Source: a phage. From it: DNA of 64,000 nucleotides. The notes under the pieces are model-generated. The model was not told the origin of the DNA, ran no database searches, and saw nothing but the letters and a program-made list of their open reading frames with translations. Position numbers and translations under genes: made by a program. This document shows, piece by piece, positions 31,477-61,350 of this stretch. The stretch is from sequence record PZ049338.1, one strand, 5' to 3'. The stretch's first letter is position 1. Each line of letters opens with the position of its first letter.

Positions 31477-32046
31477 TTAACTCTGGAAGTTTACTGATTC
31501 TCTGTCAATGTTAGCGACTAATTGACTTCGAATACGATGGAGACTGACGTAAATGTTATTTGAAGACATGCCATACTTATTGGCAACATCTTTAGTCGTG
31601 AGGTTCTTCAGGTAAACATCGGTGAACAATTCACGTTCTGATTCCTTAAGAGTCTCAAAAGCTCTCTGAACAAACGAGGAAGCTTCATCGGCTAGTAACT
31701 CACGAACAGGGTCAGTTAACCCATTATCATGGCATTCAAATTCGAGGACATTATCGTACATCTCCGTATCAACTCTGTCGAACTCTCGGCGTACATAACC
31801 ATAACGAACATTGTTCGCAATAGTACCTATAACACCGCCTAACTTATCCCACTGGATTCTGTCCCAATACTGCCAAATCCTTAGCAGAGTTTCTTGAGCC
31901 AAATCTTCAGCCAGATGGTAATCTTTTTCCATGTAGTAGAATTGTTTCTGGAGAGGTTTCCAGAACTCTTCGTACAACTCTTCAAAAGTATATGTTTCTC
32001 GTTTTGGAGTAGGGGCACTAATTCTCTTAGCCATCATACATTCCAT
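31477..32046 (-). CDS. ECF-type sigma factor (regions 2 and 4)
   Basis: DLAQETLLRIWQYWDRI (region 2-like) and LTTKDVANKYGMSSNNIYVSLHRIRSQL (region 4 HTH). Confidence 0.7.
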   Translation of the reverse strand: MECMMAKRISAPTPKRETYTFEELYEEFWKPLQKQFYYMEKDYHLAEDLAQETLLRIWQYWDRIQWDKLGGVIGTIANNVRYGYVRREFDRVDTEMYDNVLEFECHDNGLTDPVRELLADEASSFVQRAFETLKESERELFTDVYLKNLTTKDVANKYGMSSNNIYVSLHRIRSQLVANIDRESVNFQS

Positions 32047-39044: not shown

Positions 39045-39401
39045 TTAATCCTTCTTCTTCTTGCTCTTAGGCTTGCTCACAGGTAAACGGGACTTAGCGC
39101 CCTTACGTCCACCTGCGGCCTTACCTTTTGAGCTACCAGACTTACCACCAGCAGACATATTCTCGCTGGCATCACGTAAACGCAAATTACTGCGGTCATT
39201 GGAGCCACCATCTTTAACTGTCTTCTTGTGGTCAACGTGTACAGATGTTGGCAATTTTCTACCGATGCTCTTTTCCATCTCTCGACGGGCACGGTGTCGC
39301 ATTGCATCCTTAGACTTCTTACCAACGCCGGTATCACCACGCTTTATAGCAGTGATACGTTCTTGTGCGTAGTTTCGTACATAACCCGGTGAACTAGGCA
39401 T
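39045..39401 (-). CDS. basic protein with HNH-like motif (HVDHKK...GGSNDRSNLRL)
   Basis: motif read by eye; candidate small HNH nuclease. Confidence 0.45.
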   Translation of the reverse strand: MPSSPGYVRNYAQERITAIKRGDTGVGKKSKDAMRHRARREMEKSIGRKLPTSVHVDHKKTVKDGGSNDRSNLRLRDASENMSAGGKSGSSKGKAAGGRKGAKSRLPVSKPKSKKKKD

Positions 39402-39629: not shown

Positions 39630-39795
39630 CCGGCATTGTTTCTTTACAACACGGGCATATGTAATAGTGTGAATAGTCCTCAGTGCTTACGCGTTTCATG
39701 GGAACAAAACACCAATCACATTCAATACTTTTCACACCGTACATAATGAATACCTTATTTAAGACTCTTCTCAACTCTACGAGTAATATACTCAC
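39574..39795 (-). CDS. small Zn-ribbon protein (73 aa)
   Basis: CDWC...CPCC. Confidence 0.45.
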   Translation of the reverse strand: MSILLVELRRVLNKVFIMYGVKSIECDWCFVPMKRVSTEDYSHYYICPCCKETMPGERFDEYEYEWGDYNGQE

Positions 39796-40024
39796 GAGCT
39801 ACTTTAGGATTACATTCCATTAAGAGGTCTTCAACATCTTCGTTGATTTCACTCTTCGTTACAGTTAACTGATGAAGATACTTACCCTGAATAATCATTG
39901 CAATCTGCAGAGCTTCATCAAAACTTGATTGATTGACAGCCTCTTGTGAGGCCATAACTGATTGGATGATTTGGTTTACATCAAATTCAACCAAGGAGCC
40001 ATCATCTTTCTGATATTTTACCAT
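39755..40024 (-). CDS. hypothetical protein (89 aa)
   Basis: ORF track. Confidence 0.45.
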   Translation of the reverse strand: MVKYQKDDGSLVEFDVNQIIQSVMASQEAVNQSSFDEALQIAMIIQGKYLHQLTVTKSEINEDVEDLLMECNPKVAREYITRRVEKSLK

Positions 40025-40032: not shown

Positions 40033-40482
40033 TCAGCGACCAGAGCGTACAAAGTATGCCAGCTTGTCGATGGCAGCTACTAATTCTTGCAAGATGCTAA
40101 CAGTCACATCATCCTCTGTATCAAACAGACGAGCCACATGACCAGTTATTGTTTCCAGAGTTTCGACCATATCAGACAACATCTCTGAACTGTCGTAGCT
40201 GTCAACACCTTCACTGAACCAGCGAACTTCATGATAATACCCTGCCGTTGATTTGACAGGATGCTGTAGGCCACGTAGCCGCTCAGCAACAATATCAGAC
40301 CATTCATCAGCAACAGTATCAATATCTTCGAACAGTTTATGGAGACTTCCAAAGTTGGCTCCGGTTACGTTCCAATGATAATTCTCTGCCTTGATGGACA
40401 GTAATTTGAGGTTGGCAACCACTGGATTCAATGGGTGCAGATTATCTTCACCACTTTGACGTGACGGTCTTGGAGATAACAT
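40033..40482 (-). CDS. Dps-like ferritin-fold protein
   Basis: YHWNVTGANFGSLHKLFEDI and DIVAERLRGL align by eye with recalled E. coli Dps (HWNMRGANFIAVHEML, DTMAERAVQLGG). Confidence 0.6.
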   Translation of the reverse strand: MLSPRPSRQSGEDNLHPLNPVVANLKLLSIKAENYHWNVTGANFGSLHKLFEDIDTVADEWSDIVAERLRGLQHPVKSTAGYYHEVRWFSEGVDSYDSSEMLSDMVETLETITGHVARLFDTEDDVTVSILQELVAAIDKLAYFVRSGR

Positions 40483-41138
40483 TACTCAGTTTCCTTAATA
40501 GTTGCTTTCAAGGCCGACCAAGCGACCGGATAAAGGTCAGTCATGATTGCATCAAGTTGCTGTGCAAACAAACGAACCTCGTATTGAGCATGAGTGCTCG
40601 AACGTTGACGGTATACTTCAAACCAACCATACAGTGAACCAGTCCATACCCATTCTGTAACCATCCCTTGCGGGAGTACAAAGCGAGCCTGCTCTGGTGC
40701 AATGAACTTAATCAGCTTATCGTAGGCAAGTAATGCTGCTTCATATGCGTAATTATACAACACAAGAGCTTCATATTTCTTAACACCTTCAAGAAGTACA
40801 CCACCGCCATCATGCAAGTTATCAGGTCGTGCAAAGATTTCCTTAGGAATGAACACTTCGACATTACCATCTTTATATCGACGGCTCATTTCGTTCCAAG
40901 AAAATCCAACCTGATGCTTACCTAGCTGGCGAGCGATTGCGATTGGGGCTTTACAGCGAAGGGTCACTGTTGCGTGCCGGAATGGGGTTACATGACGTTC
41001 ACGAGCTAAGAACTTGACCAAGCGAACATCTCGCTCATTCAACTCACCTTCTCGTGTTACACCATAAGATACTCGTGCTGCGTTAACAACTGAAGTATCA
41101 TCACCCATTAAATCTACTAATTGCGCTTCAATAGTCAT
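40482..41138 (-). CDS. thyX: ThyX-like flavin-dependent thymidylate synthase homologue (signature appears divergent)
   Basis: ARQLGKHQVGFSWNEMSRRY resembles ThyX motif region, but canonical RHR seems replaced by KHQ. Confidence 0.6.
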   Translation of the reverse strand: MTIEAQLVDLMGDDTSVVNAARVSYGVTREGELNERDVRLVKFLARERHVTPFRHATVTLRCKAPIAIARQLGKHQVGFSWNEMSRRYKDGNVEVFIPKEIFARPDNLHDGGGVLLEGVKKYEALVLYNYAYEAALLAYDKLIKFIAPEQARFVLPQGMVTEWVWTGSLYGWFEVYRQRSSTHAQYEVRLFAQQLDAIMTDLYPVAWSALKATIKETE

Positions 41139-41152
41139 CCTTGACCCTTATA

Positions 41153-41362
41153 TTAATATTCGATTTTACTTAAAATGAAAATAGCACCATCAGGTGTTAT
41201 ATTAGCCTTATGCATTGACACTTTAATGTTATGCTTACGGGCAGGTATGAGGTTTTTCAACCCTGCACGGGCTTCTTTTCTTGTTTTATAAGTCATTAAC
41301 AATGGTAAGTCGTCTGACTTATCTTTATTAAGAAGCTTGAGTACCCAAATCCATTGAGACAT
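41153..41362 (-). CDS. small hypothetical protein (69 aa)
   Basis: ORF track. Confidence 0.4.
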   Translation of the reverse strand: MSQWIWVLKLLNKDKSDDLPLLMTYKTRKEARAGLKNLIPARKHNIKVSMHKANITPDGAIFILSKIEY

Positions 41363-42163: not shown

Positions 42164-42429
42164 CAGCGAGTCTCTTCTAAGTCTCGGTTAACACCCACAT
42201 TACCATCAAGGTTAGCCTGCACTTGAGCAGAAATAACAATCAGGTTCTTAGGGTAGGAGAGGGTTGTTTTACCAGAGCTAAGCACATGGATTCGAACTTT
42301 CAGAGGAGTAACATCCACAACTCGGGCTATTTCTAGCCCTTGGTTGTATTTACCATTACCCCAGACAACAATATCGTCCAGTCGAATCACCCGGTGCAGC
42401 TTATCACGGTGATTGTGTGACAGTAACAT
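42163..42429 (-). CDS. hypothetical protein (88 aa)
   Basis: ORF track. Confidence 0.45.
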   Translation of the reverse strand: MLLSHNHRDKLHRVIRLDDIVVWGNGKYNQGLEIARVVDVTPLKVRIHVLSSGKTTLSYPKNLIVISAQVQANLDGNVGVNRDLEETR

Positions 42430-42719
42430 TAATCAAGACCTCGCACTGTAGAGAGGATGAAATTACGCAGCATGTCTTCAGTCTGCATCCCTGTTTTGAA
42501 ACCTACTGGCTTCTTGTTTTCATCAAACACGATGATGGTTGGGACACCACGGATGCCAAAGGTACGAGCTTCTTCGCGTACTCCGTCGTCTTCGATGCTA
42601 CGGGATTCAAAAGTAAATCCCTCTTCTTCCAGTTCATCTTGAACTTTCTTGAAGATAGGCTCGATTGCTTTGCAAGGAGCACAGGAAGTACCAAAGTATT
42701 TAATTACAGAGTAAGCCAT
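42429..42719 (-). CDS. thioredoxin
   Basis: CxxC active site SCAPC in thioredoxin-sized (96 aa) protein. Confidence 0.75.
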   Translation of the reverse strand: MAYSVIKYFGTSCAPCKAIEPIFKKVQDELEEEGFTFESRSIEDDGVREEARTFGIRGVPTIIVFDENKKPVGFKTGMQTEDMLRNFILSTVRGLD

Positions 42720-43477
42720 TATTCACCACCTTCGTTGTCTAATTCCATTGCTTTAACCACTGCCTTACAGAAGCCGCTTCGAACGATATCGTCAGAAGTA
42801 CCTTCAACAACAGCAGCATAGTCGCCCAGAGCGTGACGGTTGATAAAATCAATCGCCCAATCCAGACCATTTTCACCACCCATATCATTCTGCTCGGAAT
42901 CCCCGATACAGAACAGCTTAGAGTTCTCACCCAAGCGAGTCATGATTGAGTACATTTCATCAGGTTTGGTATTCTGAGATTCATCCACAATGACCACAGC
43001 GTTCTCGAAAGAACGACCACGAACATATTCCAGTGGTACGAATTCAATGTTACCAAGACCCATCTGGCACTCATAGAAGCCATGACCGTAACGACCTTTG
43101 ATTACATCTACCATAGGCATCAGATACGGTTCAAACTTCTCTTTCAGAGTGCCGGGCAGGAGACCAAGAGATTTACCCATACCAACCGAAGGTCGGCTCA
43201 GTACAATCTTCTGAATCTTGTTCTGCTTAAGCCAATCTGCGGCTTGACTCATGAGTACAAAAGTCTTACCGCAACCAGCAGGAGCGTCAACAAACACAAC
43301 CTGAGCTTCCATCATGCTAGTATGAAGTTCACGTTGGAACTCATTCTTAGGGATGATAGGCTTGATAATGTTTGCTGTCTCAAACTCACGACGAGCGTGT
43401 TGGCTATTACGACGAACAGTTTCTTCGCGCAGTGCTTCACGACGTAATTCACGACGACTAGGCTTAAGTTTCTTCAT
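42719..43477 (-). CDS. phoH: PhoH-like ATPase
   Basis: Walker A DAPAGCGKTF; overall PhoH-like pattern. Confidence 0.75.
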   Translation of the reverse strand: MKKLKPSRRELRREALREETVRRNSQHARREFETANIIKPIIPKNEFQRELHTSMMEAQVVFVDAPAGCGKTFVLMSQAADWLKQNKIQKIVLSRPSVGMGKSLGLLPGTLKEKFEPYLMPMVDVIKGRYGHGFYECQMGLGNIEFVPLEYVRGRSFENAVVIVDESQNTKPDEMYSIMTRLGENSKLFCIGDSEQNDMGGENGLDWAIDFINRHALGDYAAVVEGTSDDIVRSGFCKAVVKAMELDNEGGE

Positions 43478-44081
43478 TATTCAACTCCTCAGTGTGACCA
43501 GAGCCAGCATATGCTTGAGTAGCACCCTGCTGACCGTTGTAGTTACCTTTAACAGCGTAAGAGTCGTTACCAACGTCTTCGTGTTCAAAGAATACCATCT
43601 GACCAATGCGCATACCGGGTTTGATAAGGAGTCGGTGATACTTGTTCATATTCTTGAACTCCATAGTAAGCTGTGCGCCATGCCAACCGGCATCTGCCCA
43701 ACCTGCCATCATGTGTTCAAGGAAGCAACGAGCCACTGTAGAACGTAATACAAACTGACTGGAGATAGTATTTGGTAAGTTAAATGTCTCAACAGAGTGA
43801 GCCAAGAAACACTGACCCGGTTCGATAATCAAACCAGTCTCAGGGATAATCTGTTTGATGAACTTAGGAGATTGCTTTGCAGCAATATCAATCGGTTCAG
43901 AATGAACACCCGGAACAGCTTCAGCCATACCAGAAAGGTCTTGGTATTGCCATGCAGGGGCTTCGACCAGAATCTCGTTACCAATACGGATATCAATACT
44001 CGCTGAGTTTACGTTCTCATGCAGAGCGTCAATAACATTTTCATCAATCAGTTGGTGCAATCGTGTAGAAGAGAGTAACAT
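43464..44081 (-). CDS. dcd: dCTP deaminase
   Basis: SIDIRIGNE, RSTVARCFL, KPGMRIGQMVFFE, YNGQQGA align with recalled E. coli Dcd. Confidence 0.75.
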   Translation of the reverse strand: MLLSSTRLHQLIDENVIDALHENVNSASIDIRIGNEILVEAPAWQYQDLSGMAEAVPGVHSEPIDIAAKQSPKFIKQIIPETGLIIEPGQCFLAHSVETFNLPNTISSQFVLRSTVARCFLEHMMAGWADAGWHGAQLTMEFKNMNKYHRLLIKPGMRIGQMVFFEHEDVGNDSYAVKGNYNGQQGATQAYAGSGHTEELNNEET

Positions 44082-44264
44082 TAACTATCCTTAGTCTTCG
44101 TCGTTGTCGTTAAAGCGGAATGGGTCGGAGCATTCAATTACCCCAGCGTCTTCGTCTAAGCGAAAGGTCATTCCTGCAATTTCAAAATCGGAGTCCATCA
44201 TGTGTTATTCCTTAACAAGAGGCCACACTTATTATAGTGACCTCTAGAGAGTATCCTTACACCG

Positions 44265-46635: not shown

Positions 46636-47310
46636 TTACAGAGTGTCATAGTAGTCTGCGCGATTATGCAGACACCAGTCACCCGACTCAACACGGTTAC
46701 TGTCGCCTTGGTCTTCATCAATGTGATAAATCCAAGCCTTTGCGAAGGAACCATCATCCAGTTGGATTTCAACCTGCGTACGGTTATAGAAACCATTCTC
46801 AGGGTCACAGGCACTGTACCCTTCCAGCATGTCGTATGCACCAGTCAGACCTTCCAGAGGTGCTTCAAATACATCAACAACAACCTGCTTGCCAGACTTG
46901 TTAGCCTTAAGGTTCACGGAAGGGAAGTAGGAGCCACCGTAGCGATATAAATCGAACTGGTCTACAGTCACACCCTTACTTACAAATTCACCGCCGCCAC
47001 GAGCGTTTACGTGGAAATTCTGCATGTTGCGACGCAGAGAGCCATAAGTTGCGATGAATACTTTACCGTCTGAAGGAATTACTAAGTTCTTTGACATTAC
47101 TTGTCCTGTTTTAGGTTGTAGATAATATTTAACTTCGACAAATCGCCATGTGTTCTGGAGGTTCTCTGCCATTTCTTTTGCTTCTGGGTAAGTTAAGCCA
47201 CAGCCAAGCTGATAACCTTCCTCACCCTTACTCATGCGACCAATCAGTAAATAACGAACTTCATGGTCACCTGTTAGTGGTTCTTTAATTGAGAGCTTCA
47301 TCTTATACAC
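46636..47310 (-). CDS. gamma-glutamyl cyclotransferase-like (AIG2/GGCT fold) domain protein
   Basis: FIATYGSLRR ... DMLEGY ... YNRTQV fits GGCT pattern. Confidence 0.55.
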   Translation of the reverse strand: MYKMKLSIKEPLTGDHEVRYLLIGRMSKGEEGYQLGCGLTYPEAKEMAENLQNTWRFVEVKYYLQPKTGQVMSKNLVIPSDGKVFIATYGSLRRNMQNFHVNARGGGEFVSKGVTVDQFDLYRYGGSYFPSVNLKANKSGKQVVVDVFEAPLEGLTGAYDMLEGYSACDPENGFYNRTQVEIQLDDGSFAKAWIYHIDEDQGDSNRVESGDWCLHNRADYYDTL

Positions 47311-47366
47311 TTCTCACCCCTTGTTATGTTCGACAAAGGCCACTCCGAAGAATGACCTTTAGCAAA

Positions 47367-47903
47367 TTACCAGAGCTTATTAAGAGCCAGATTATTAGTA
47401 ATCACTGGTGTGCTTTCGTAATCATCCAGAGATGTTGGGCCCATACTAATAGCACCATATCCAGTTACGTGAACACTTACACGGGTCATCTGGTCGAAGA
47501 ATTCCTTCATCTGAGACGGTTCTGTGATGTTCTTTCCAGCAACACCAAGAACCTGTACACGCTGACCAGAGGAGCGCAGACCCTTCTTAGTGACCACTGC
47601 CGTAACTGTCTGACCAACAACAGTGGGCTTAGTTAATACCTCAAAGAACACACCGGATATGTCAGTTACACCCTGTTCCATATGCATTGTTGCATAGTTA
47701 ACTTTGTAGGTGTTTGGAACTTCATATACACGGGTAGATTTGAAAGTAGTACCAATGTAGTTATCTGCATTGAAGTCACGGGAACGGCTACGACGTTCAG
47801 CCTCAATGAGAAGTGATTGGTAATAACCTTCCAGTATTTCACCAACACCTTTACGAGTTGTACTTAACCCGATTACTCGGGAATATCCAATAATTAAGAA
47901 CAT
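47367..47903 (-). CDS. hypothetical protein (178 aa)
   Basis: ORF track; 23-bp repeated element immediately upstream. Confidence 0.5.
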   Translation of the reverse strand: MFLIIGYSRVIGLSTTRKGVGEILEGYYQSLLIEAERRSRSRDFNADNYIGTTFKSTRVYEVPNTYKVNYATMHMEQGVTDISGVFFEVLTKPTVVGQTVTAVVTKKGLRSSGQRVQVLGVAGKNITEPSQMKEFFDQMTRVSVHVTGYGAISMGPTSLDDYESTPVITNNLALNKLW

Positions 47904-47912
47904 TAAGAATCT

Positions 47913-47935
47913 CTCTTTATATATGTGGATTAACT
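47913..47935 (+). promoter_or_regulatory. 23-bp repeated element CTCTTTATATATGTGGATTAACT (copy B)
   Basis: identical to 25156-25178; 10 nt from start codon of 47367-47903. Confidence 0.45.
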
Positions 47936-47936
47936 A

Positions 47937-48476
47937 TTACAATTTCTGAGTCACTGTTTCGTAGGTGGTTACTACCTTTTTCTTCTTCTCAGTGATACCG
48001 GAAAGAAGTGCCCAATAGAAACGACCGCCATGACGTTCAGCCATCTCAGCAGCAATCTGCTCTGCCTTCTCAGCAGTTTCCACCACTACGCGAGGTGGAC
48101 GAGATGATTCAGGACACCACAAGATATACTTACCGAGGTTCTTATCTTTAGGAGAAGCCTTGGCTTCCGCTTTAGCTGTCTCTTGGGTAGCAGTAGAACT
48201 TTCACCCAAATCGTTGAGACGCCATGTATACAAGGCAGTACCTGATAGTAGGGTCAGTCGGCTACGAATGATGAAGCTGGTTGGTCGCTGATTCAACTGT
48301 ATAGAATACAATTGACGACCATGCTTGTCAATTAAGCACACTTCCCAACGACCCGGATATAACAAGTAGATTCCAATAGTGTACATGAACCTATTACCAA
48401 TACGAGCCTCTGCACGGTCATGGTCATGGAAGTTGAAGTTAACAGAAGAGGGGATGTGGATTAACTTCTTAGACAT
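47937..48476 (-). CDS. hypothetical protein (179 aa)
   Basis: ORF track. Confidence 0.5.
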   Translation of the reverse strand: MSKKLIHIPSSVNFNFHDHDRAEARIGNRFMYTIGIYLLYPGRWEVCLIDKHGRQLYSIQLNQRPTSFIIRSRLTLLSGTALYTWRLNDLGESSTATQETAKAEAKASPKDKNLGKYILWCPESSRPPRVVVETAEKAEQIAAEMAERHGGRFYWALLSGITEKKKKVVTTYETVTQKL

Positions 48477-48682
48477 TATTTACCAACCTTAGTTACGCTT
48501 TCAACAAGAGCATAAGGGAATGCGGCTTGCAATTCCATGTGACCTGCCTTACCACCAATAGTCTTGTTCTCAATGAAGATGTAGAACTTGTAGTGGTGAG
48601 GGTCAATCTGAACCATTGTTGCAGGAATGATTTTATCCGCAGAGTCAAGAAGTTTTACACGATATTTAATAATCTCAGCCAT
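48476..48682 (-). CDS. small hypothetical protein (68 aa)
   Basis: ORF track. Confidence 0.45.
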   Translation of the reverse strand: MAEIIKYRVKLLDSADKIIPATMVQIDPHHYKFYIFIENKTIGGKAGHMELQAAFPYALVESVTKVGK

Positions 48683-48686
48683 TTCT

Positions 48687-48956
48687 TTAATCCCAGTTAG
48701 GTTGGAGGTCTTTCATTGCGAAGTCACGTACTTCACCACGTTCACGGCAAACAGCTTTTACGAACCACTGTTCACCTTCATGGTACTCAGAGATACCATA
48801 CCAAATATTGATTGGTACAATAGTGCGCTCTGCTGTTTCACCGCGCCAGTTAGTGTAGGTCACACGGTGTGGTACTTGTAGAACTAATAACTTTGGTCGT
48901 GCTGTTTCAGAAGGGACTTTCGTCGTCATAATCTTCACCGTAGACAATAGAATCAA
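48687..48956 (-). CDS. hypothetical protein (89 aa)
   Basis: ORF track. Confidence 0.45.
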   Translation of the reverse strand: MILLSTVKIMTTKVPSETARPKLLVLQVPHRVTYTNWRGETAERTIVPINIWYGISEYHEGEQWFVKAVCRERGEVRDFAMKDLQPNWD

Positions 48957-49182
48957 TGAACGCTTGATGTTTTGCCAACTTCTTTTTCATGAGTTTGTTG
49001 TGGACTTGAAGAATATTAGAGACCTCTTTGGTGACAGTCACATGAGGTACAGCAACACCTTCAGCGAATTTTAGTCGCTTAAAGGGAGCGACAAGGTAAA
49101 TGAACTTAGCAACTTCAGTGTTGTTTCGTAAATTTACCTCTTCCCCATTAGTTAACTTATAATACACCCAGAGATTCCACAA
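48907..49182 (-). CDS. hypothetical protein (91 aa)
   Basis: ORF track; overlaps both neighbours. Confidence 0.4.
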   Translation of the reverse strand: MWNLWVYYKLTNGEEVNLRNNTEVAKFIYLVAPFKRLKFAEGVAVPHVTVTKEVSNILQVHNKLMKKKLAKHQAFIDSIVYGEDYDDESPF

Positions 49183-50344
49183 TAATTACATCGTTAGTTG
49201 TAACCATGATTTCCCAGCCAGCCAGTTCGAACATACCACCGGTGAATACACCTACGTTACGAACATCATCGTTACGCATCTGAACGATGTAGATGCCGTT
49301 TTCAACCAAGCGAATTGGTTCCTGACGCGTCACAGTAGCTGTTACCTCTGCTTCGATAGCGAAGTTTTCATCTTCAGCAGCTTCTACTGCATTGTCTGTG
49401 GCAGTCTGGTTCTGAGTTACAATGTCAACCAGTTCCTGAGCGGCAGCGTTACCACGAACGATTGCTGCTTGCAATTCACTGTTGGTGTTCACTTCATTTT
49501 GCAATTCAGCCAGAGCTTCATTAATATCTTCGACAGCATAAACTTCCTGACCATTGAAGATTGCCATTACGTTGGCTGCAAAACGTTCTGCGTTAGAACC
49601 GGTCATACCCGGAGCAGTGTTAACTTCCAGTACCCACGCTTCATCACGACGAGTAATGAGGTCAACTGCACCGTAGTCCAGACCCAGAGCAGCGATTGCT
49701 TTCAGGGCTTCACGCTTAGCTTCTTCATTAGGCTCAGCCTGCTGAGTTGCATAAATCCAACCAGTGTGGTGATTTCGGATAATATCACTGTATTCTGGCA
49801 GGTCAGCGTAACCGTTCACACGCTTCTTCTGCTGAATGTTAGTGATAACACCATTCATCACATGGATGCGGTATTCACGACGCTGAGCATTAACACCCTT
49901 GGTGTAAAGCTGTGCATTAGCCAGAGTACCTTGAACACCATCACCGAAAAGCTCTTCGTTGTTGGTTGCAATCACAATGCCTTCACCAGAGTGTCCAGAA
50001 AGGCGTGTACGGCAATAAACCAGATGACCTGCATCAAGCCATGACTGAGCTTCTTCACGGTCTGTAGTGTACTCTACAGTCTTCACATCATTGCGACGGA
50101 ATACTTCGAAAGAGATACGTTTGTTGGTCGCATTACCAACGTTGTACGGGTTGTTCAGGATGCGGGCATTGCCGATGATTTCGGCAGATAGGGAGGATGA
50201 ACCGTAGTTGACAATTAAGTCACCACTGCGACCACGGAAGCGAGAGCCATCAGTCAGGAGACGAAGTGCTCCCGGCATTAAAGGCATGAGTTCGTTCAGG
50301 GTGTCAGAAGGGCCATTTGAATATACACGTAAGCGAGGTGCCAT
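49157..50344 (-). CDS. ATP-grasp ligase
   Basis: C-terminal ATP-grasp signature WVLEVNTAPGMTGS. Confidence 0.7.
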   Translation of the reverse strand: MAPRLRVYSNGPSDTLNELMPLMPGALRLLTDGSRFRGRSGDLIVNYGSSSLSAEIIGNARILNNPYNVGNATNKRISFEVFRRNDVKTVEYTTDREEAQSWLDAGHLVYCRTRLSGHSGEGIVIATNNEELFGDGVQGTLANAQLYTKGVNAQRREYRIHVMNGVITNIQQKKRVNGYADLPEYSDIIRNHHTGWIYATQQAEPNEEAKREALKAIAALGLDYGAVDLITRRDEAWVLEVNTAPGMTGSNAERFAANVMAIFNGQEVYAVEDINEALAELQNEVNTNSELQAAIVRGNAAAQELVDIVTQNQTATDNAVEAAEDENFAIEAEVTATVTRQEPIRLVENGIYIVQMRNDDVRNVGVFTGGMFELAGWEIMVTTNDVIIVESLGVL

Positions 50345-50389
50345 TGTTGTTACCTTTTCAGTGGGTTGTTGGAAATCAATATTATAAGA

Positions 50390-50409
50390 GGCTCCGAAGA
50401 ACCTCTGAA
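50390..50409 (-). other. conserved intergenic hairpin (RNA AGAGGUUC uucg GAGCCUCU)
   Basis: UNCG tetraloop hairpin; family member. Confidence 0.5.
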
Positions 50410-50417
50410 ATATGGAC

Positions 50418-50657
50418 TTAAGCGGCCATCAATGCGATGAGTTTGCGGTTTTCATTCCTGAGAGCACCAATCTCATCATCAATAAGACTGTAGTGGTACG
50501 ATAACATTTGGAGGGACATTTCACCTACATCTGAGGCAGTCATCTGCTCGACGTAAGTTGCCTTCTCCTCAATCAGCCGTCCAATGTCTTTGTTGTTTTG
50601 TGCTATTAAATCCATCGCCTCTTTACGAGCAGCTCTTGCGACTTCATTATCAGCCAT
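50418..50657 (-). CDS. hypothetical protein (79 aa)
   Basis: ORF track. Confidence 0.45.
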   Translation of the reverse strand: MADNEVARAARKEAMDLIAQNNKDIGRLIEEKATYVEQMTASDVGEMSLQMLSYHYSLIDDEIGALRNENRKLIALMAA

Positions 50658-50881
50658 TAGACTTCAATCCCCTTCAGACGGCAGTAGTCAGCCAGCATCA
50701 TGTGGATTGATACCGGATAAGGGATAGCCACTTTAACACCTTTTTGCTCTTCGTAAAGACCAATCTGGTAGGCACGAACTGCACGGAGCATATCAGAACC
50801 TAAATCAGTCATTGGAACTTTACGAATCACAACCGGGTTCTCCAGACGAAGAACCTTAACTTCTTTCATTGAATCATCCAT
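50657..50881 (-). CDS. hypothetical protein (74 aa)
   Basis: ORF track. Confidence 0.45.
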   Translation of the reverse strand: MDDSMKEVKVLRLENPVVIRKVPMTDLGSDMLRAVRAYQIGLYEEQKGVKVAIPYPVSIHMMLADYCRLKGIEV

Positions 50882-50896
50882 ATTCTCATTTACCTA

Positions 50897-52888
50897 TCAT
50901 TTCTTGTTTGAAACTTTACCCGGAACCTTTCCAGTTTCCAGAACTTTTGAACAGCGTTCACAGCAAGGTGTACTGCCGATAAACTCTGTAACCGCTGCTT
51001 TGTTGAAAGGAATCTTGTAGTTGCAGAAAGAGCAAGTGTTCATCTCTTCCCACTGAACCAGAGTCACTTTCATACCGTTTTGCAGAGACTTGCGATAAGT
51101 CAGGATTGGTCGGACATTACTGCCGCTATTCTTCCGCGCTTCCACAATCTCATTCTGGAGAGCTTTCAGTTCACTCTTCAGATGCTTGTTACTGTGGCAC
51201 TGTAAGCAGAGGCTCTCAACCTCTGATTCAGCATCAACAGGTAACTCTTCTTGACAGTTGATACATTCAAAACGAAGCGAGTCGTCAGAGGACGTCTTTA
51301 CACCATCAACTAACCCCGCATCTACACAACCACCACAATAGGCGTAATCATGATAGATTGTTGAGTCTGCCACGAAATCGAACGGTATTGGAGAGCCACA
51401 GTTTCCGCAGCAATTGTAAGACCCGTTTCCCTCCCATTCCTTTTTTGTGACTACAGTTCCGTCACGAGTTGTGTCCATTGTGTAACCATCATCTTCCTCT
51501 TCTTCGAGTTCAGAGAAGTCACCAATTGAAACACCGGGAGTGGTAAGAGTTAGAGCCGGCGGGGTACGATTGTTCTTGACAGTGTTGAACTCTGTCAGAA
51601 TATCATTGATATCTTCATCTAACGAACCTTCATCATCCAAATCCAATGTTGAAGGAATTAGGGTCTCACCTTGTGGTGAAACATCAGATACGATGATAGT
51701 CAGGATGTAGTTTGATTCGTAACAAGAGATAATCTTGCCTTCGAACATACCACCATCGGTGTACATTTCCAGAGGAACGCCATGACCCTGAACCTCAATG
51801 TAAGCGCCTTCACCTATCCAACCGGTAAGTTGACCTTTCTGAGGATTCTTAGGATACGGTTCGTACTGATACGCTTCGAACACCATACGTTCATGCATCT
51901 TGTATGGAACCTGATGCACTTCCAGAAGTTCGTTAAGCTGCTTGTACTTGTTGCTCACTGAATCAGGGACACCAATGTGAGAAGGCTCAACGTTGCTTCG
52001 ATTAACGCTGCTGCGAGAAGGATTGTTATAAACACGCGACGAGCCGTAGGTGTCATAACGGTCTGAAAAGTAGTCATCATACGACTGGTAGGAATTGCCC
52101 CAGTAGCGCGATTGGTATACCGTTTGAAACACAGGCAGCTCGTGCTTGATTTCCTCCTTAAATACCAGACCATCAGTTGCATCAAATACATACTGAGTTC
52201 CGACTTCGAGTTCAAACTCTTTGTCGAAAGTTGGGTTCCACTTCTTACGGGACATAATCCACTTGAGCATGTCCTTCTCAGAAGCACCATACCAGTCACC
52301 ACCAGTGGTCTTCATCATGTAGAATGGACGCTCGTCGTTACGCAGGAAGTTCAGCGTATTCAGCTTAGCGTCATGCCACACCAGAACGAATGCACCATGC
52401 AATTTCTTGATGGTTTCTTCGATACCGATAGTTGCGATTGAATGGCAAACGTTCTCACTGTCCACTTCAAACTGCTCATGGTCAGGGAGTAGGCTTTGGT
52501 TTACTAATGAGCCGTTGTGAACCAGAGTGATATGTCCACATTGGAATGGGTGGGCGTTCTTGTCAACCACAGCTCCAGCAGTTGCATAGCGGTTGTGACC
52601 AACAATGAATCGAGGGTACGACACTGATGTTGTTTTAACACCGAGGTTGTTAACATTCTCAGAACGATGCTGAGCAATATCTTTCCACAGAGTTGAACGA
52701 AGGAAAATGTCACTTGGTACAGCTTTCTTAGCCGTCTTCAAGAAGGCATCCTGCTGATACGGCTTGTAATAAGCCATCACCCCAGTTGAATGGTCGCCTC
52801 GGAACACATCGGCATACAACATCTGCTCGAAACGCTCGAGGTTAGTTGAAGATAAGGCGGTTCCACCTACAAATACAATTCCACACAT
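50897..52888 (-). CDS. class II glutamine amidotransferase (Ntn, Cys2 nucleophile) with long Cys-rich Zn-ribbon C-terminal extension
   Basis: N-terminus MCGIVF as in PurF/GlmS-type amidotransferases; C-terminal clusters CCGNCGS, CINCQ...CLQCH, CSFCN...CCERC. Confidence 0.7.
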   Translation of the reverse strand: MCGIVFVGGTALSSTNLERFEQMLYADVFRGDHSTGVMAYYKPYQQDAFLKTAKKAVPSDIFLRSTLWKDIAQHRSENVNNLGVKTTSVSYPRFIVGHNRYATAGAVVDKNAHPFQCGHITLVHNGSLVNQSLLPDHEQFEVDSENVCHSIATIGIEETIKKLHGAFVLVWHDAKLNTLNFLRNDERPFYMMKTTGGDWYGASEKDMLKWIMSRKKWNPTFDKEFELEVGTQYVFDATDGLVFKEEIKHELPVFQTVYQSRYWGNSYQSYDDYFSDRYDTYGSSRVYNNPSRSSVNRSNVEPSHIGVPDSVSNKYKQLNELLEVHQVPYKMHERMVFEAYQYEPYPKNPQKGQLTGWIGEGAYIEVQGHGVPLEMYTDGGMFEGKIISCYESNYILTIIVSDVSPQGETLIPSTLDLDDEGSLDEDINDILTEFNTVKNNRTPPALTLTTPGVSIGDFSELEEEEDDGYTMDTTRDGTVVTKKEWEGNGSYNCCGNCGSPIPFDFVADSTIYHDYAYCGGCVDAGLVDGVKTSSDDSLRFECINCQEELPVDAESEVESLCLQCHSNKHLKSELKALQNEIVEARKNSGSNVRPILTYRKSLQNGMKVTLVQWEEMNTCSFCNYKIPFNKAAVTEFIGSTPCCERCSKVLETGKVPGKVSNKK

Positions 52889-52944
52889 GGATAATAATCC
52901 TCTAAGTTCATTTAAATGGGGCCGAAGCCCCTGTTTGTTAATAC

Positions 52945-54612
52945 TTAAGCGATATGGTCGTTATCTGGCTCATAATCATCGTCTTCTTCAATATCGTCAT
53001 CTTCAGATGATTCATACATATCGTAATCACCACCACGACGAGGTACAGGGACTTCATTACGAGCTTCACGGTTCTCTTCATTACGCATGTCTACGAACTG
53101 ACGGTAGAAGTTTCCGAACAGACGAGAACGTTGAGCCTGATTGGTTTCGTAGATGAACCAATCAATGTCAAAAGTGATGCCAAGCATATCGCACTTCCAA
53201 CGCAACTCAGCTAACCAACGGAATGTCAGCATTGGAGGGCGGGTGTTCTCCAACAACCAAGTGCCATTACTGCGGGTTTCCAGATTGATTCGCAGGTGTT
53301 CCCAATAGCGAGGTTCCAGATAGAAATTTGTACGATGACTTGAATCATCCTCGGCAGATTTCACAGTGTGAACGTAAGCACTGAGTTTGCGTAGGGTTGA
53401 CATTGAAATCACTTCATATGCCAGTTTGTAGCCAATGTCCAAATCTTCTTCGAAGTTCTGAACAACCTTCGGCAGACCCTTACGAATTGCGCTGTGAATC
53501 GGCAATGTTGATAGGTACTCAATGAAGTCACTATCAGTACCTTCGAAGTTCACCGCCAGTTCCTTCAGTGATAAGAAGCGGTTAGTCAGGCGAATAATGC
53601 TGCCCTTACGCCACTTGGCCTCACTAATACGGAATTCAACTGAACCAAAACTACTCATCGGTAACAAGTTCAGTGAAGTGTACTTATCCCATTCACGGGT
53701 TACACGATTAGTGAAATCGTGGTTGTCCAGATGCCAGTTGTTAGCCAGAGTAGCTAACTGCTCCTGTGCAAAACCAAGAGCAACACAGAAGTTGTTCTTG
53801 TAACGATGCCAACCAGAGCAGCGGAACAGTACACGCTCATAAACAATATACGCAAGAATCATGCGCTTCAGTTGAGCGACACTCAAATCACGTACATCAA
53901 TGTGAACGTGGGTGGAGCAACGCCAAGATGTATCTGGCGTATGACGGAACAGGAAGGAGTCGATTTCCAGGGATGCTGCATAGAGGTCACGACCACCCCA
54001 AGGGGATGAACATACAAACTCCATACCTGAGTTACGAAGTGAACCATCTAGCTTTGCTTCCCAATACTGGAAAGTTGGCTCATCACTGAGGTGAATCTCT
54101 TCGAGTTCAATCTCAATACCTGCCAGATGTGTTCCAACAATTAAAGGATGACCCTGAATAGTTGGGTAGGTTGCACGTTGCCCGTAAATCTGTGCAATAT
54201 TCATGTTATTCGATACCTCTACGTTTCCGGAGATGAAGCCGTTGCGGCTTGGATTATTAACGCTTCCGTGTCTCTGGTTACCAATCTCTTCCCGTAGATT
54301 GTCTCGTGTGTATGCGTGTTGACCTCTTTGAAGTCCAGTGAAGAGGCTAGGTCTCTGGCTTTCGCGCTCCATTCTCCGCTGTCTTGCTTGTTCATCAGCA
54401 CGGTTATTCAACCACGTCATGAAGGCACTATCTTCTGACTGAGCTACCCCCTGATTCACTATTGGCACAGGTGGCTCTTCGAAAGCTTGAGATACAACAC
54501 TTTCTGTTACATTCGGAGGTTGATAATTAGCCCATCTGTCCATGTGTACAGTGGCTTCAACGTCGAAGAAACCCCCAGTTAATCCTGGGGAGTTGTTACT
54601 GTTATTTGGCAC
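52945..54612 (-). CDS. glutamine-synthetase-fold carboxylate-amine ligase (GCS2/YbdK-like amidoligase), 555 aa
   Basis: GIEIELEE, THVHIDV, FGSVEFRIS match recalled YbdK motifs GIELEM, HVHVG, FGTVEVRVMD. Confidence 0.55.
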   Translation of the reverse strand: MPNNSNNSPGLTGGFFDVEATVHMDRWANYQPPNVTESVVSQAFEEPPVPIVNQGVAQSEDSAFMTWLNNRADEQARQRRMERESQRPSLFTGLQRGQHAYTRDNLREEIGNQRHGSVNNPSRNGFISGNVEVSNNMNIAQIYGQRATYPTIQGHPLIVGTHLAGIEIELEEIHLSDEPTFQYWEAKLDGSLRNSGMEFVCSSPWGGRDLYAASLEIDSFLFRHTPDTSWRCSTHVHIDVRDLSVAQLKRMILAYIVYERVLFRCSGWHRYKNNFCVALGFAQEQLATLANNWHLDNHDFTNRVTREWDKYTSLNLLPMSSFGSVEFRISEAKWRKGSIIRLTNRFLSLKELAVNFEGTDSDFIEYLSTLPIHSAIRKGLPKVVQNFEEDLDIGYKLAYEVISMSTLRKLSAYVHTVKSAEDDSSHRTNFYLEPRYWEHLRINLETRSNGTWLLENTRPPMLTFRWLAELRWKCDMLGITFDIDWFIYETNQAQRSRLFGNFYRQFVDMRNEENREARNEVPVPRRGGDYDMYESSEDDDIEEDDDYEPDNDHIA

Positions 54613-55196
54613 TGTGGTAATTCCTTGGCTAAAAAGCGAACCAAGTGACGTGCTTCAGCAGCCACTTCGATAGCATCGTCAGAGAGGAACTTACCGATGC
54701 TCACATCCTTGTAGCGTAAGTCTGAATTGACACGCAGGAATACCCCTCCAATAACTTCAGGATACTCATTTTTGTTGAAGAACGCTTTGATGTTCTCCCA
54801 ACTAAAGCGGAAGTTGTTACAGATACGGCTGTGGGTTAACCCCTTCTTAGTTGAGCGATTTGCACGATAACTGACCCATACGAAGTTGTTTCCAATCTTC
54901 ACGAATGCAGGCTCAGGTAATTCTAGAACCAGATTCGGGTCAGTATGAGAGATGGATACGTTACGGTAATTACCATCGTCACCCATCGTCGTTCCGTGGA
55001 ATACCAGAGCATCTTCAGCTTCCTGAGAATACGCTGCACGGTCACGCTGTGCTCGCGTCATTTCACTGAAATCCAGAACAGTATTGTCATGGGTCACTGC
55101 GTCAATCTGGAAGGGCTGGACTTTACCAGCCTCATCCTTCAGACCAACGTAAGTCCCAGAGTAATACATTGAGAAATCGTCGGTAAGCATTAGCAA
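54579..55196 (-). CDS. hypothetical protein (205 aa) within amidoligase cluster
   Basis: ORF track; overlaps both neighbours. Confidence 0.5.
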   Translation of the reverse strand: MLMLTDDFSMYYSGTYVGLKDEAGKVQPFQIDAVTHDNTVLDFSEMTRAQRDRAAYSQEAEDALVFHGTTMGDDGNYRNVSISHTDPNLVLELPEPAFVKIGNNFVWVSYRANRSTKKGLTHSRICNNFRFSWENIKAFFNKNEYPEVIGGVFLRVNSDLRYKDVSIGKFLSDDAIEVAAEARHLVRFLAKELPQCQITVTTPQD

Positions 55197-55993
55197 ATCT
55201 CCATCACACGTACATATTCTTTAGCCAGAGCTTTGTCATTGTTGTTAATGACACGCTGTACTTCTTCCGGGTTGATGATTGATGCGATGCCACGGAAATC
55301 ACCACGCATCATAGCGAATGCTTTCTGAGCTTGTTCCCAAGCCCATTTGCGATTCTCTTTGTTCATAATCCAGAAGTTGGACATTACACGATATTCGATA
55401 CCGTATGGCTTGAAGCGGCAAGCACCAGCTTTACCATACAGTTCTTTTCGACGGTCATCACCGTCCAGCAGGAGGGCGGGCAGTCCCAGGAAGTAGTCAC
55501 ACATCACGCCGAGAACTTTCTGACTTTCGGACGTCACAGTAGTAACTGTATCGTAGCCAACGTGGATGTGACCACCTGCTGTACGAAGACCGGGGTCAGC
55601 AGCTTGAGGTTTAGGATTACGCATACCAGTCAGTGCGTTGTAATCAGGCTCACAGCCGAATACGAATGCATCTTTGTGGAAGCGTTCCAGTTCAGCAGCG
55701 GTGTAGATATGAGAACTGACATTCATTGCCAGTTCATGACCTACATAACCAACTGCTTCTTCACAGTATTTGATACCATCAACAATGTTCTTGTCGAAGG
55801 ATTCAAAATCACTATGCGGGTTGGTGTCGAACTCAACCAGCACGTTATCTTCCTGAATACGAACGTCTTCCGTGACTGCTTTCTTGTTGTACTTGTCCGC
55901 TCCAAGCAGACCTGAAACAGAACTGATAGCCCCTGTGCTCGAATCACGAGTGAACAACTCAGGGTCGGTAGCCAACAAAATAACATTAGACAT
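55190..55993 (-). CDS. glutamine-synthetase-fold carboxylate-amine ligase (GCS2/YbdK-like amidoligase), 267 aa
   Basis: GGHIHVGYD and YGIEYRVMS match recalled YbdK HVHVG and VEVRVMD. Confidence 0.6.
   Translation of the reverse strand: MSNVILLATDPELFTRDSSTGAISSVSGLLGADKYNKKAVTEDVRIQEDNVLVEFDTNPHSDFESFDKNIVDGIKYCEEAVGYVGHELAMNVSSHIYTAAELERFHKDAFVFGCEPDYNALTGMRNPKPQAADPGLRTAGGHIHVGYDTVTTVTSESQKVLGVMCDYFLGLPALLLDGDDRRKELYGKAGACRFKPYGIEYRVMSNFWIMNKENRKWAWEQAQKAFAMMRGDFRGIASIINPEEVQRVINNNDKALAKEYVRVMEIC
55533..55544 (-). other. strand-specific 12-mer, exact copy 4 (intragenic)
   Basis: exact 12-mer. Confidence 0.6.
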
Positions 55994-56013
55994 TTCGTTT
56001 TCCTTAAAGAGGG

Positions 56014-57150
56014 TTAATATTTAGGGTTGTAACCGTTTGCTTCTGCGAAAGCAGCCAAAGCAGCAATTGCAGCTTCAGCATCTCTCTTGTTCATGTCACT
56101 ATGAACCGGACTGTATGGGTGGTCTTGCGAACCAGATGTTGGGCCTGCAATGTAGAAACCAACAACACTGTTCCATTCTTGCACGCCTGGGATTACTTCA
56201 TCACCAGCGATACTGAAAGCATCAACCATCTTACGGTAGCGAATTGCGTTAGAATGGTCAGTATCAATATCACCAAATGTATCACGCTCACGCGCTACAT
56301 CACGGGAATTGGTTCTCCAGTTCCAGTAAATACCCTTGTAGCGGTCATCAAACACCACTTCAAGACTTTTAAAGTGCGAGTCACGATAGTAACCACGCTG
56401 ATTCTTCCACGTATCCTGCACGTAGTCGAACTTGTCAACACGCTGATGGAGGAGGTTAATCAGGCCTTGAGAACCAATGGTGTCCGGAGAGAACCAGTTA
56501 TACTCACCAGTACGAATTGGTTGATAATACTTATCGACCTTGCCCGAGAATGCACTCTTGTTAACAGTGATGTTAAAGAAGTGCGCGATGATGGCAGAAA
56601 AACGTCGCGTGTATCCACAATGCAACGCCTCTTTATAAGCGGTGACGAATCCACCATAGTTACAGAGGTTGCGGAACAATGACATTGCCAACATAACTTC
56701 GTCAGCTTTGCGCTTGCCAATGTGGAAACGAATTACGCCAAGCTTTGGATGAACCTTCACCCAAGACTTATACATTGGCAACTCTTCCAGCAATAACTTC
56801 ATTTCACTGAAATAGTTTGGGCCACAAGTTTTAAGCATGTACTTGACGCGTGATTGTTGATTTTCGATTTGGTAGAATTCCTCAGGATATTCACCATCGC
56901 CATGAGTATCCATTGGGGCAGACCACATGTGACTAATGCCATACTCAACTTCAAAATCGATGTGCTTCTGTTGGTGACCATCACGCTCACGGATATTACT
57001 GGCTTCTACCGGAGTGAAATGTTGTGTCGGGCTGTCAGGGTTAATTAGGCGCTGCTCATGCCAACGATTAACACCCATTTTACCGAAACAAATACCTTGG
57101 GCACGGAAGGATTTTCCGTCCTTAAACATTACGCGATATTGAACTGACAT
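56014..57150 (-). CDS. hypothetical protein (378 aa) within amidoligase cluster
   Basis: ORF track. Confidence 0.5.
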   Translation of the reverse strand: MSVQYRVMFKDGKSFRAQGICFGKMGVNRWHEQRLINPDSPTQHFTPVEASNIRERDGHQQKHIDFEVEYGISHMWSAPMDTHGDGEYPEEFYQIENQQSRVKYMLKTCGPNYFSEMKLLLEELPMYKSWVKVHPKLGVIRFHIGKRKADEVMLAMSLFRNLCNYGGFVTAYKEALHCGYTRRFSAIIAHFFNITVNKSAFSGKVDKYYQPIRTGEYNWFSPDTIGSQGLINLLHQRVDKFDYVQDTWKNQRGYYRDSHFKSLEVVFDDRYKGIYWNWRTNSRDVARERDTFGDIDTDHSNAIRYRKMVDAFSIAGDEVIPGVQEWNSVVGFYIAGPTSGSQDHPYSPVHSDMNKRDAEAAIAALAAFAEANGYNPKY

Positions 57151-60597: not shown

Positions 60598-61350
60598 TTA
60601 CGACTGGATAATGCTTTCTTGAGCCAGTTCATCTTTCACCTGTTTAAGTGTAAATGTATTGTCGTCACAATCAATACCAATAGGGCCGATAATACGGTAT
60701 TTAGTATTGCGAGTTTCAACAAAGAAAGTACCAACCTTCTCAGAGATATTTACTACACGGGAGGTACTGATTGACAACCCATCACGGAAAGGGTGATTTC
60801 CGTGAGTGTGGGTATCGCTCCAGATTCGACCAGTCATGTACCAGTTGCTATCATTGGACTTGTAAATGATAGCAGATGACAGTTTGGCGTCGAATTGTGG
60901 AATTGGTAATGGGACATAACCTTCACGCAGTATCGGATTTTGTTCATCCGGCATTTGAGTGAAAGGCTTCATCTCAAACATTATTTCAAAGTCACGAGCC
61001 CATTGGCGAATCCGTTTTGGATTTAAACCATTGACACGTTTGAAGTAACCCTGCTGATGTTCAGCACTGATTAATTCATATGACAAATCCAAATCCGTAC
61101 GATGAACAGTGGAACACATCATCATAAGGTATTCATGACGACCACACCACACGTAAAGAAGATGTCCAATCTCCTCTTTAGTGAAATCTGTCGCTTCCGC
61201 CAGACGGTCAGTGATACCAAGCGCCAGTGGTTCAGGGAAACGCTTGTAGAAAAGGATTGGGAACTTCTCAATAAGTTCCGGCATACGACGCTTATAGAAA
61301 TCGTACTGAACAGGGGTAACAGGGCGAAGTTTTACGCGTTGAGTTGTCAT
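60598..61350 (-). CDS. ProQ/FinO-domain-like RNA-binding protein with C-terminal extension
   Basis: LIEKFPILFYKRFPEPLALGI...LLYVWCGRHEYL...DLD resembles recalled ProQ/FinO N-terminal pattern. Confidence 0.5.
   Translation of the reverse strand: MTTQRVKLRPVTPVQYDFYKRRMPELIEKFPILFYKRFPEPLALGITDRLAEATDFTKEEIGHLLYVWCGRHEYLMMMCSTVHRTDLDLSYELISAEHQQGYFKRVNGLNPKRIRQWARDFEIMFEMKPFTQMPDEQNPILREGYVPLPIPQFDAKLSSAIIYKSNDSNWYMTGRIWSDTHTHGNHPFRDGLSISTSRVVNISEKVGTFFVETRNTKYRIIGPIGIDCDDNTFTLKQVKDELAQESIIQS

Follow-up and report, generated by a model that had tools for sequence, protein, structure and literature searches.

A gene of the phage sequence record PZ049338.1, within the stretch of 64,000 nucleotides that was analyzed as a whole (the window), encodes a full-length member of the ThyX family of flavin-dependent thymidylate synthases (FDTS) in which the canonical signature motif is replaced by a variant that characterizes a whole subfamily. 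In this subfamily, here called K-type, the variant comes as a package that consists of a K-H-x tripeptide in place of R-H-R, a spacer longer by one residue, SRRY in place of SGRY and the loss of an arginine with which the second subunit contacts the phosphate of flavin adenine dinucleotide (FAD), i.e., R165 of the Thermotoga maritima enzyme (Tm), which is Y170 here. We consider it very probable that the protein is an active K-type FDTS that converts deoxyuridine monophosphate (dUMP) into deoxythymidine monophosphate (dTMP) through the usual methylene relay over flavin N5, with a remodeled clamp on the FAD phosphates. The original prediction had proposed either a functional but divergent thymidylate synthase or a ThyX-fold enzyme redirected to a different modification of pyrimidines; the former is favored by a full-length match above curated cutoffs, the ThyX fold, a conserved active site and the chromosomal housekeeping contexts in which relatives are found. 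The gene, from the list of open reading frames (ORFs), and its two diagnostic segments are as follows:

40482..41138, minus strand: thyX coding sequence, K-type FDTS of 218 amino acids with an ATG start
40875..40919, minus strand: variant ThyX motif K74-H75-Q76-x8-S85-R86-R87-Y88 (canonical R-H-R-x7-S-G-R-Y), from translation and alignments
40590..40685, minus strand: C-terminal active-site segment R152...Y170...R179...H183, from translation and position mapping

The translation, which includes ARQLGKHQVGFSWNEMSRRY, matched the Pfam model Thy1 (PF02511) over the entire profile (positions 1-191 of 191, E = 6e-42, 144 bits where the cutoff is 24.8), the NCBIfam equivalog model TIGR02170 for thyX (123.5 bits against a cutoff of 87.9) and PHROG 85, thymidylate synthase, at 1e-60. 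In a phmmer search of the PDB, the best match was the FDTS of Thermus thermophilus (6j61, 6e-30); ThyX of T. maritima matched at 9e-25 and that of Mycobacterium tuberculosis only at 1e-3, which places the protein well within the sequence range of solved ThyX enzymes, and identity to the T. maritima and T. thermophilus enzymes is about 30% over the full length. An AlphaFold2 model of the ligand-free monomer, built on an alignment of 46 sequences (A1), reached a predicted local distance difference test (pLDDT) of 95.3 and a predicted template modeling score (pTM) of 0.89; positions 40482-41135 (minus strand), i.e., the protein without Met1, served as input for this model as well as for A1 and a narrower alignment (A2), in all of which the numbering is therefore lower by 1 than the true residue number. 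The best 50 Foldseek matches in the PDB were all ThyX, with template modeling (TM) scores of 0.79-0.84, the value of 0.84 belonging to T. maritima ThyX complexes. By its hidden Markov model score, its fold and its catalytic residues, the ORF is a full-length ThyX family member. Near-identical phage proteins in GenBank are already annotated as ThyX, and within the window it is an ordinary nucleotide-metabolism gene.

The motif region of the protein reads ...PIAIARQLGKHQVGFSWNEMSRRYKDG..., of which positions 40875-40919 encode KHQVGFSWNEMSRRY. HMMER placed K74-H75-Q76 with high posterior support opposite the R-H-R of T. thermophilus (6j61) and T. maritima (1kq4, R78-H79-R80), and the mapping was unchanged in a MAFFT alignment; the predicted replacement of RHR by KHQ is thus borne out by alignment to solved ThyX enzymes. 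The spacer to the signature serine has 8 residues instead of 7, through the insertion of a single residue. The possibility that an RHR tripeptide stands elsewhere was checked over the whole protein and none was found, the nearest strings being RHV and RHA (residues 48-50 and 54-56), which contain the equivalents of Tm H53 and H59. With K-H-Q-X8-S where the canonical signature has RHRX7-8S, the protein falls within the ThyX family and outside its canonical RHR subgroup.

The substitution is not peculiar to this gene, and its rarity, which the original prediction had implied, was a misjudgment: KHQ is a subfamily trait. Among the closest relatives, a set of 120 clusters at 90% identity that are 56-99% identical to the query, the first position is K in 120/120, the second H in 119/120 (the exception having K-S-Q) and the third Q in 120/120; SRRY is found in 115/120, and the position of Tm R165 is Y, F or L in all. 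Since the tripeptide holds over 120 clusters of such divergence, KHQ reflects neither chance nor a sequencing error. When 1.84 billion cluster representatives were searched exhaustively with HMMER, 6902 relatives emerged, of which 319 reached E ≤ 1e-30, and the best 150 of the 6902 at 50% identity were used for motif statistics. RHR occurred in a single one of these 150, from the Petrotogaceae, which was also the sole carrier of Arg at the 165 position. The first motif position was K in 128/150 and the second H in 138/150, while the third was Q in 86, K in 20, T in 17, V in 7 and other residues in the remainder; SRRY was present in 139/150. At least 149 further clusters at 50% identity are thus likewise without the canonical RHR signature.

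In a hand-picked comparison, the ThyX proteins fell into two clean classes. The canonical class, with RHR, S(G/Q/A)RY and in most cases R165, holds T. maritima, Thermus phage P23-45, mycobacteriophages L5 and JayJay, cyanophage S-RIM14 and phages of Gordonia, Bacillus and Pseudomonas. The K-type class holds the query, the Rheinheimera Barba phages, roseophage CRP-4, the N4-like Klebsiella phage FBKp27 and, with KYA as its tripeptide, Streptomyces phage StarPlatinum. K-type proteins formed one clade in a neighbor-joining tree, adjoining the T. maritima/Thermus group, to which the clade is a sister or of which it is a derivative. At the base of the clade stood intermediates with KHR/SGRY/Q and KHQ/SGRY/Q, which suggests that the flavin-phosphate clamp was replaced stepwise and not through a sudden change of function.

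Inteins with HNH endonucleases interrupt the motif itself in four metagenomic K-type proteins (P0121, P0197, P0230 and P0243), in the order KHQxGF, intein, SWNExSRRY. Inteins tend to sit at conserved sites of important proteins. For many further representatives the match to the query is split into two segments, and these proteins may carry an interruption as well. A 2004 study by Liu and Yang reportedly dealt, going by its title, with distinctive ThyX motifs, possibly this same K-H-Q/SRRY package, and an intein in ThyX. The textbook signature RHRX7S misses a large, mostly viral branch of ThyX of at least 150 clusters at 50% identity, a branch that motif-based screens would overlook and that work on ThyX inhibitors and mechanism has not sampled.

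Functional positions of the T. maritima enzyme were mapped onto the query by alignment, with residue roles taken from a review (PMC6514825) and from what is generally known of T. maritima structures. The conserved positions are Tm H53 (H49 in the query), T55 (T51), R74 and Q75 (R70 and Q71), H79 (H75), E86 (E83), S88 (S85), R90 (R87), Y91 (Y88, the Tyr lid), E144 (E149), R147 (R152, a dUMP contact), R174 (R179, a dUMP contact) and H178 (H183). Changed are R78 to K74, R80 to Q76, G89 to R86 (which turns SGRY into SRRY), R143 to P148 and R165 to Y170. None of the dUMP, folate and catalytic residues that were checked has changed (Tm H53, Q75, E86, S88, R90, Y91, E144, R147 and R174), and these residues are at least 96% conserved in the 150 representatives, with H79 at 92% (138/150); across 270 homologs, the dUMP/catalytic set (Tm Q75, E86, S88, R90, Y91, R147 and R174) is likewise at least 96% conserved. 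We take H53, E144 and R174 to be residues of the folate/NADPH site, as in the T. maritima folate complex, and structures of H53 and E144 mutants of ThyX were among the Foldseek matches.

The residues of RHR form hydrogen bonds with the adenosine monophosphate (AMP) phosphate, the ribityl group and the flavin mononucleotide (FMN) phosphate of FAD, and the first Arg also touches the isoalloxazine and dUMP (PMC6514825). The same groups of FAD are contacted by a Ser and an Arg from the neighboring subunit (S71 and R190 in M. tuberculosis, S50 and R165 in Helicobacter pylori; PMC6514825), which we equated with Tm T55 and R165 by position, without direct alignment. Contacts to dUMP come from the first Arg of RHR, the equivalents of R174, S88 and R90, and the Tyr lid (PMC6514825). 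Within the flavin phosphate/ribityl set, the query has kept H75 and T51, has K74 and Q76 for arginines and Y170 for R165, and has gained R86. Judged by this mapping, the altered residues are cofactor-phosphate contacts, while the residues for uracil recognition, for the dUMP phosphate, for folate and for shielding of the reacting atoms are intact.

K-type thyX genes are also resident in bacterial chromosomes. One genome per species was scanned for 185,579 species with K-type patterns, which were derived from A2 as A1 was too diverse for a locus search; the patterns contain K-H-Q, so that only KHQ-type genes could be found and the 50 resulting loci do not allow relative abundance to be inferred. 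Phage or prophage contigs account for many of the 50 loci; several others clearly lie in chromosomes, with a gene order conserved between independent genomes of the same lineage. Two Spirochaetia genomes, one of them a chromosome of 1.79 Mb, carry thyX between lpd and citrate synthase on one side and a pyrF-pyrE fusion (orotidine monophosphate decarboxylase/phosphoribosyltransferase) on the other (loci L005 and L006), and the flanks also hold, as read from translations, an apparent aldo-keto reductase and a short-chain dehydrogenase/reductase. The gene lies between an acrB-type pump and ispH in four Nitrospinaceae genomes (L029, L035, L044 and L050), next to pyruvate dehydrogenase E1/E2 in two SAR202 Chloroflexota (L025 and L031), and in the chromosome of three Poribacteria (L011, L017 and L033). 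Identity between the two Spirochaetia is 65% for ThyX, 70% for citrate synthase and 64% for Lpd, and in the six cellular loci checked the guanine-plus-cytosine (GC) content of thyX differs little from the value for the flanking DNA; both divergence and GC content thus match the surroundings, which is the behavior of a vertically inherited housekeeping gene. Nitrospinaceae, SAR202 and Poribacteria, abundant uncultured groups of marine or sponge-associated bacteria, have K-type thyX as a resident chromosomal gene, and its occurrence in chromosomes and phages suggests that the subfamily arose by passage either from phage to cell or from cell to phage.

Two groups of loci were set aside as cellular evidence. 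A contig labeled 'Prochlorococcus' (L030) appears, by its ORF translations, to be a fragment of a T4-like cyanophage in which a gp32-like ORF adjoins thyX, and was rejected. The loci in the cultured isolates of Phenylobacterium, Novosphingobium and Roseicella have, by their ORF translations, apparently prophage-like flanks with helicase/primase-like genes and small ORFs and were not counted as housekeeping.

In the mechanism that we propose, a homotetramer, with active sites to which three subunits contribute, would bind dUMP stacked on the reduced flavin, take the methylene group from methylenetetrahydrofolate (CH2H4folate) via flavin N5 and then reduce it to yield dTMP, with NAD(P)H as the reductant. 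What would differ is the grip on the phosphates and ribityl group of FAD, in which Lys stands for the first Arg of RHR, Gln for the third and Tyr for the Arg of the neighboring subunit (Tm R165); the new R86, next to the Arg that would hold the dUMP phosphate, probably compensates for the lost arginines. Catalytic activity, dTMP as the product and this role of R86 are what we infer from the conservation pattern and the genomic contexts.

Several points weigh against this reading. Three canonical FAD-phosphate contacts have changed at once, which makes altered cofactor handling likely and, from the sequence alone, a loss of activity possible. A search of the literature for an assay of any K-type ThyX found none, and no K-type structure was found in the PDB, where all matches with an inspectable alignment are of the RHR type; a validated K-type enzyme was also sought in a paper on Asgard ThyX, whose text holds no sequence or motif. 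In the bacterial lineages above, K-type ThyX would be the sole source of dTMP only if those cells have neither thyA nor a second thyX, either of which may be present. Finally, relatives of the phage in the Gordonclarkvirinae resist restriction-modification (RM) systems without a known modification pathway, which leaves room for an unrecognized nucleotide modification.

The first of these points leads to an alternative that refines the preferred explanation and is compatible with it. In this variant, which we regard as possible and put forward tentatively, dTMP is still made and the flavin is held differently, be it as a weakly bound, exchangeable FAD co-substrate or as FMN or another flavin, with R86 rebuilding the phosphate clamp. 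It would account for the joint changes across the K-type clade, where R78 to K, R80 to Q and R165 to Y/L/A co-vary with G89 to R and R143 to P at positions that bind the AMP and FMN phosphates and the ribityl group in ThyX of M. tuberculosis and H. pylori (PMC6514825), and for the variability of the third motif position in the wider clade, as expected of a residue without cofactor contact. H79, T55 and H53 are kept, however, and Lys can stand in for Arg at the first position, both of which speak against such a change.

The retargeting raised in the original prediction is very unlikely. The enzyme would then make a non-thymine C5-substituted pyrimidine nucleotide, e.g., 5-hydroxymethyl-dUMP by capture of water on the exocyclic methylene intermediate, for incorporation into phage DNA and protection from restriction. 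In its favor, the ThyX mechanism does pass through such an intermediate (PMC8989533), and the Gordonclarkvirinae relatives were described as 'remarkably resistant to RM systems' with a modification pathway that is not known (PMC11990801). The window also holds an unexplained cluster of peptide/amide-bond enzymes of the phiEco32 type (46636-58107, minus strand), with the following members:

46636-47310, minus strand: GGACT gamma-glutamyl-cyclotransferase-like protein
49157-50344, minus strand: RimK/ATP-grasp protein
50897-52888, minus strand: class-II glutamine amidotransferase (GATase), 663 amino acids
52945-54612, minus strand: Amidoligase_2, 555 amino acids
55190-55993, minus strand: 'Phage phiEco32-like COOH-NH2 ligase type 2' (PF14395)

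The residues that changed, however, are contacts to the flavin phosphates and not to the base or to hydride transfer, and R174, Y91, H53 and E144 are intact. The same motif package is present in chromosomal genes of four bacterial lineages and in phages as unrelated as a T4-like cyanophage, an N4-like Klebsiella phage, a roseophage and the Barba phages, so that retargeting to another pyrimidine modification gained no positive support from the pattern of the change. Known thymidine hypermodification begins with a dUMP hydroxymethylase of the ThyA family and not with ThyX, and neither that pathway (hydroxymethylase, 5-hydroxymethyldeoxyuridine (5-hmdU) DNA kinase, transferases; PMC8989533) nor any Pfam match to nucleobase-modifying enzymes, for instance 5-hmdU kinases or glycosyltransferases, turned up in the 45 larger window ORFs scanned. 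The genome ends of phiEco32 were, moreover, mapped by restriction profiling (PMC9965538).

A more specific form of this idea, in which K-type ThyX of this phage group releases, instead of simply making dTMP, a product such as 5-hydroxymethyl-dUMP that ends up in the DNA, where the amidoligase, GATase, ATP-grasp and gamma-glutamyl-cyclotransferase cluster might modify it further, is highly improbable. Were it true, such a product would account for the unexplained restriction resistance of the Gordonclarkvirinae, a question on which the K-type result bears. It has been suggested in print that these phages swap thymidine for deoxyuridine to evade restriction. That they keep a conserved thymidylate synthase which is under purifying selection and seems to be functional speaks against such a replacement in their DNA. 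The cluster at 46636-58107 might produce a metabolite or a peptide tag, and connecting it with nucleic-acid modification would be purely speculative; it also holds two proteins of 378 and 318 amino acids without an assigned function. That the protein is a catalytically dead or moonlighting homolog, e.g., a dUMP- or flavin-binding regulator, is scarcely credible, because the broken literal signature and the three changed cofactor contacts, all that speaks for it, are set against active-site residues strongly conserved over a very deep clade, inteins placed exactly inside the motif in several homologs, residence among housekeeping genes in cellular genomes and a score above the equivalog cutoff.

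The protein was also compared with known ThyX systems. With the enzymes of T. maritima and T. thermophilus (PDB 1O26, 4GT9 and 6J61) it has the fold and the dUMP, folate and catalytic residues in common and differs in RHR to KHQ, the spacer longer by one residue, SGRY to SRRY, Tm R165 to Y and Tm R143 to P. Canonical phage ThyX proteins such as L5 gp48 and those of P23-45 and S-RIM14 belong to the same Pfam family and have the same role in nucleotide metabolism, but keep RHR, S(G/Q/A)RY and mostly the R165 equivalent, and are at most 27-30% identical to the query. Mycobacteriophage L5 gp48 was reportedly found to be active by Bhattacharya and colleagues in 2008. That the ThyX fold lends itself to a different pyrimidine substrate is shown by PolB, which we take to be the ThyX-like UMP/dUMP (uridine/deoxyuridine monophosphate) C5-methylase of polyoxin biosynthesis behind PDB 4P5A and 4P5B. 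The match to 4p5a (E = 2.4e-16) is weaker than that to ThyX (6e-30), and where PolB sits in a nucleoside-antibiotic cluster, the query lies in a phage block for replication and nucleotide metabolism and thus lacks the context of a PolB-type enzyme.

Coliphage N4 gp30, called a putative thymidylate synthase (PMC2784036), was considered as a K-type enzyme of a well-studied phage and rejected, as the protein of 313 amino acids is very divergent and not comparable. Its gene (1844-2785 of the N4 locus, L064) is found roughly 1 kb downstream of that for the N4 dCTP (deoxycytidine triphosphate) deaminase, with three small genes between them, and the protein shows no more than a faint ThyX-like string (FMTHRALNRNASSSRAIP); perhaps it represents a ThyX-like family of still greater divergence.

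The window belongs to a prolate podophage similar to phiEco32 and 7-11 and shares 96-97% identity over 10 kb with phage PKM.Lu.22.1 (Grimontviridae in its taxonomy line) and Salmonella phage PKM.Hi.22.6. The query is 97% identical to ThyX of these two phages and 72-75% identical to that of 7-11, phiEco32, SU10 and Bas89-91. ThyX proteins of the phiEco32-like phages, Kuravirus and the 7-11-like phages, which are annotated as 'thymidylate synthase (ThyX)', have KHQ...SRRY and stand in the same block of replication and nucleotide-metabolism genes, and the gene order around thyX differs between genera. In Bas90, a gene for a 'nucleotidyltransferase' of 437 amino acids lies between those for dCTP deaminase and the polymerase exonuclease subunit (5018-6331 of the Bas90 locus, L053), and the authors of the BASEL collection tied it to a possible DNA modification; the gene is absent from the window, which has only about 180 bp (44082-44264) at that place.

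The thyX gene block of the window includes thioredoxin, PhoH, dCTP deaminase and replication genes, and the elements around thyX are as follows:

40033..40482, minus strand: Dps/ferritin-like gene, 149 amino acids (Pfam Ferritin 8e-10, NCBIfam Dps below cutoff, PHROG 3636 'DNA binding protein')
41139..41155, minus strand: spacer of 14 nucleotides upstream of the thyX ATG with a Shine-Dalgarno-like AAGGG (reverse complement TAATATAAGGGTCAAGG-ATG)
42429..42719, minus strand: thioredoxin-like gene, 96 amino acids, part of the same leftward block of genes (NCBIfam thioredoxin models at 1e-12, under their cutoff)
43464..44081, minus strand: dCTP deaminase, 205 amino acids (Pfam DCD 5.6e-33, TIGR02274 94.2 against a cutoff of 92.8, PHROG 1663)

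The dCTP deaminase that the original prediction had named as a neighbor is real and on the same strand, but it lies 2.3 kb upstream, behind PhoH, thioredoxin and about eight small ORFs. This deaminase would be the likely supplier of deoxyuridine nucleotides upstream of ThyX and, together with dUTPase (deoxyuridine triphosphatase) and kinases of the host, could turn a C-rich host pool of deoxynucleoside triphosphates (dNTPs) into deoxythymidine triphosphate (dTTP) for a genome of 43.6% GC. Enteric hosts have about 51% GC. As the GC content of the window, 43.6%, is well below that of the host, such a shunt from dCTP through deoxyuridine triphosphate (dUTP) and dUMP to dTMP makes physiological sense. 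A scan of the 45 larger window ORFs, a set without the small ORFs and the genome beyond the window, turned up neither a ThyA nor any second thymidylate synthase. K-type thyX lies near other genes of dNTP supply elsewhere, i.e., the small subunit of ribonucleotide reductase (RNR) in Klebsiella phage FBKp27, glutaredoxin in the Rheinheimera Barba phages and thioredoxin in Bas90; in Bas90 and the 7-11-like phages an annotated thioredoxin domain is encoded directly upstream of thyX.

On its upstream side, the thyX spacer begins right after the stop codon of an ORF of 69 amino acids (41153..41362). On the other side, the TAA stop codon of thyX overlaps the ATG of the Dps/ferritin-like gene (TAATG), and the two genes are therefore probably translationally coupled. 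In a side reaction, ThyX enzymes act as NADPH oxidases and yield H2O2. Coupling of a Dps-like protector to an H2O2-producing ThyX would be a neat pairing, speculative as it is.

Four further ORFs on the minus strand were recorded in passing. A stand-alone ORF of 89 amino acids at 39755-40024 resembles the N-terminal, ATP-cone-like part of NrdD-type RNRs (phrog_487 at 6e-7, phrog_36488 at 2.5e-42), and no reductase gene was seen in the window. The ORF at 39045-39401, in the replication block, encodes a highly basic protein of 118 amino acids with a weak match to HNH endonucleases (phrog_7785 at 2e-4; phrog_4590 at 1e-35). A ProQ/FinO-domain protein (PF04352, 3.6e-9) is encoded at 60598-61350, and a sigma-70-family factor with regions 2 and 4 at 31477-32046.

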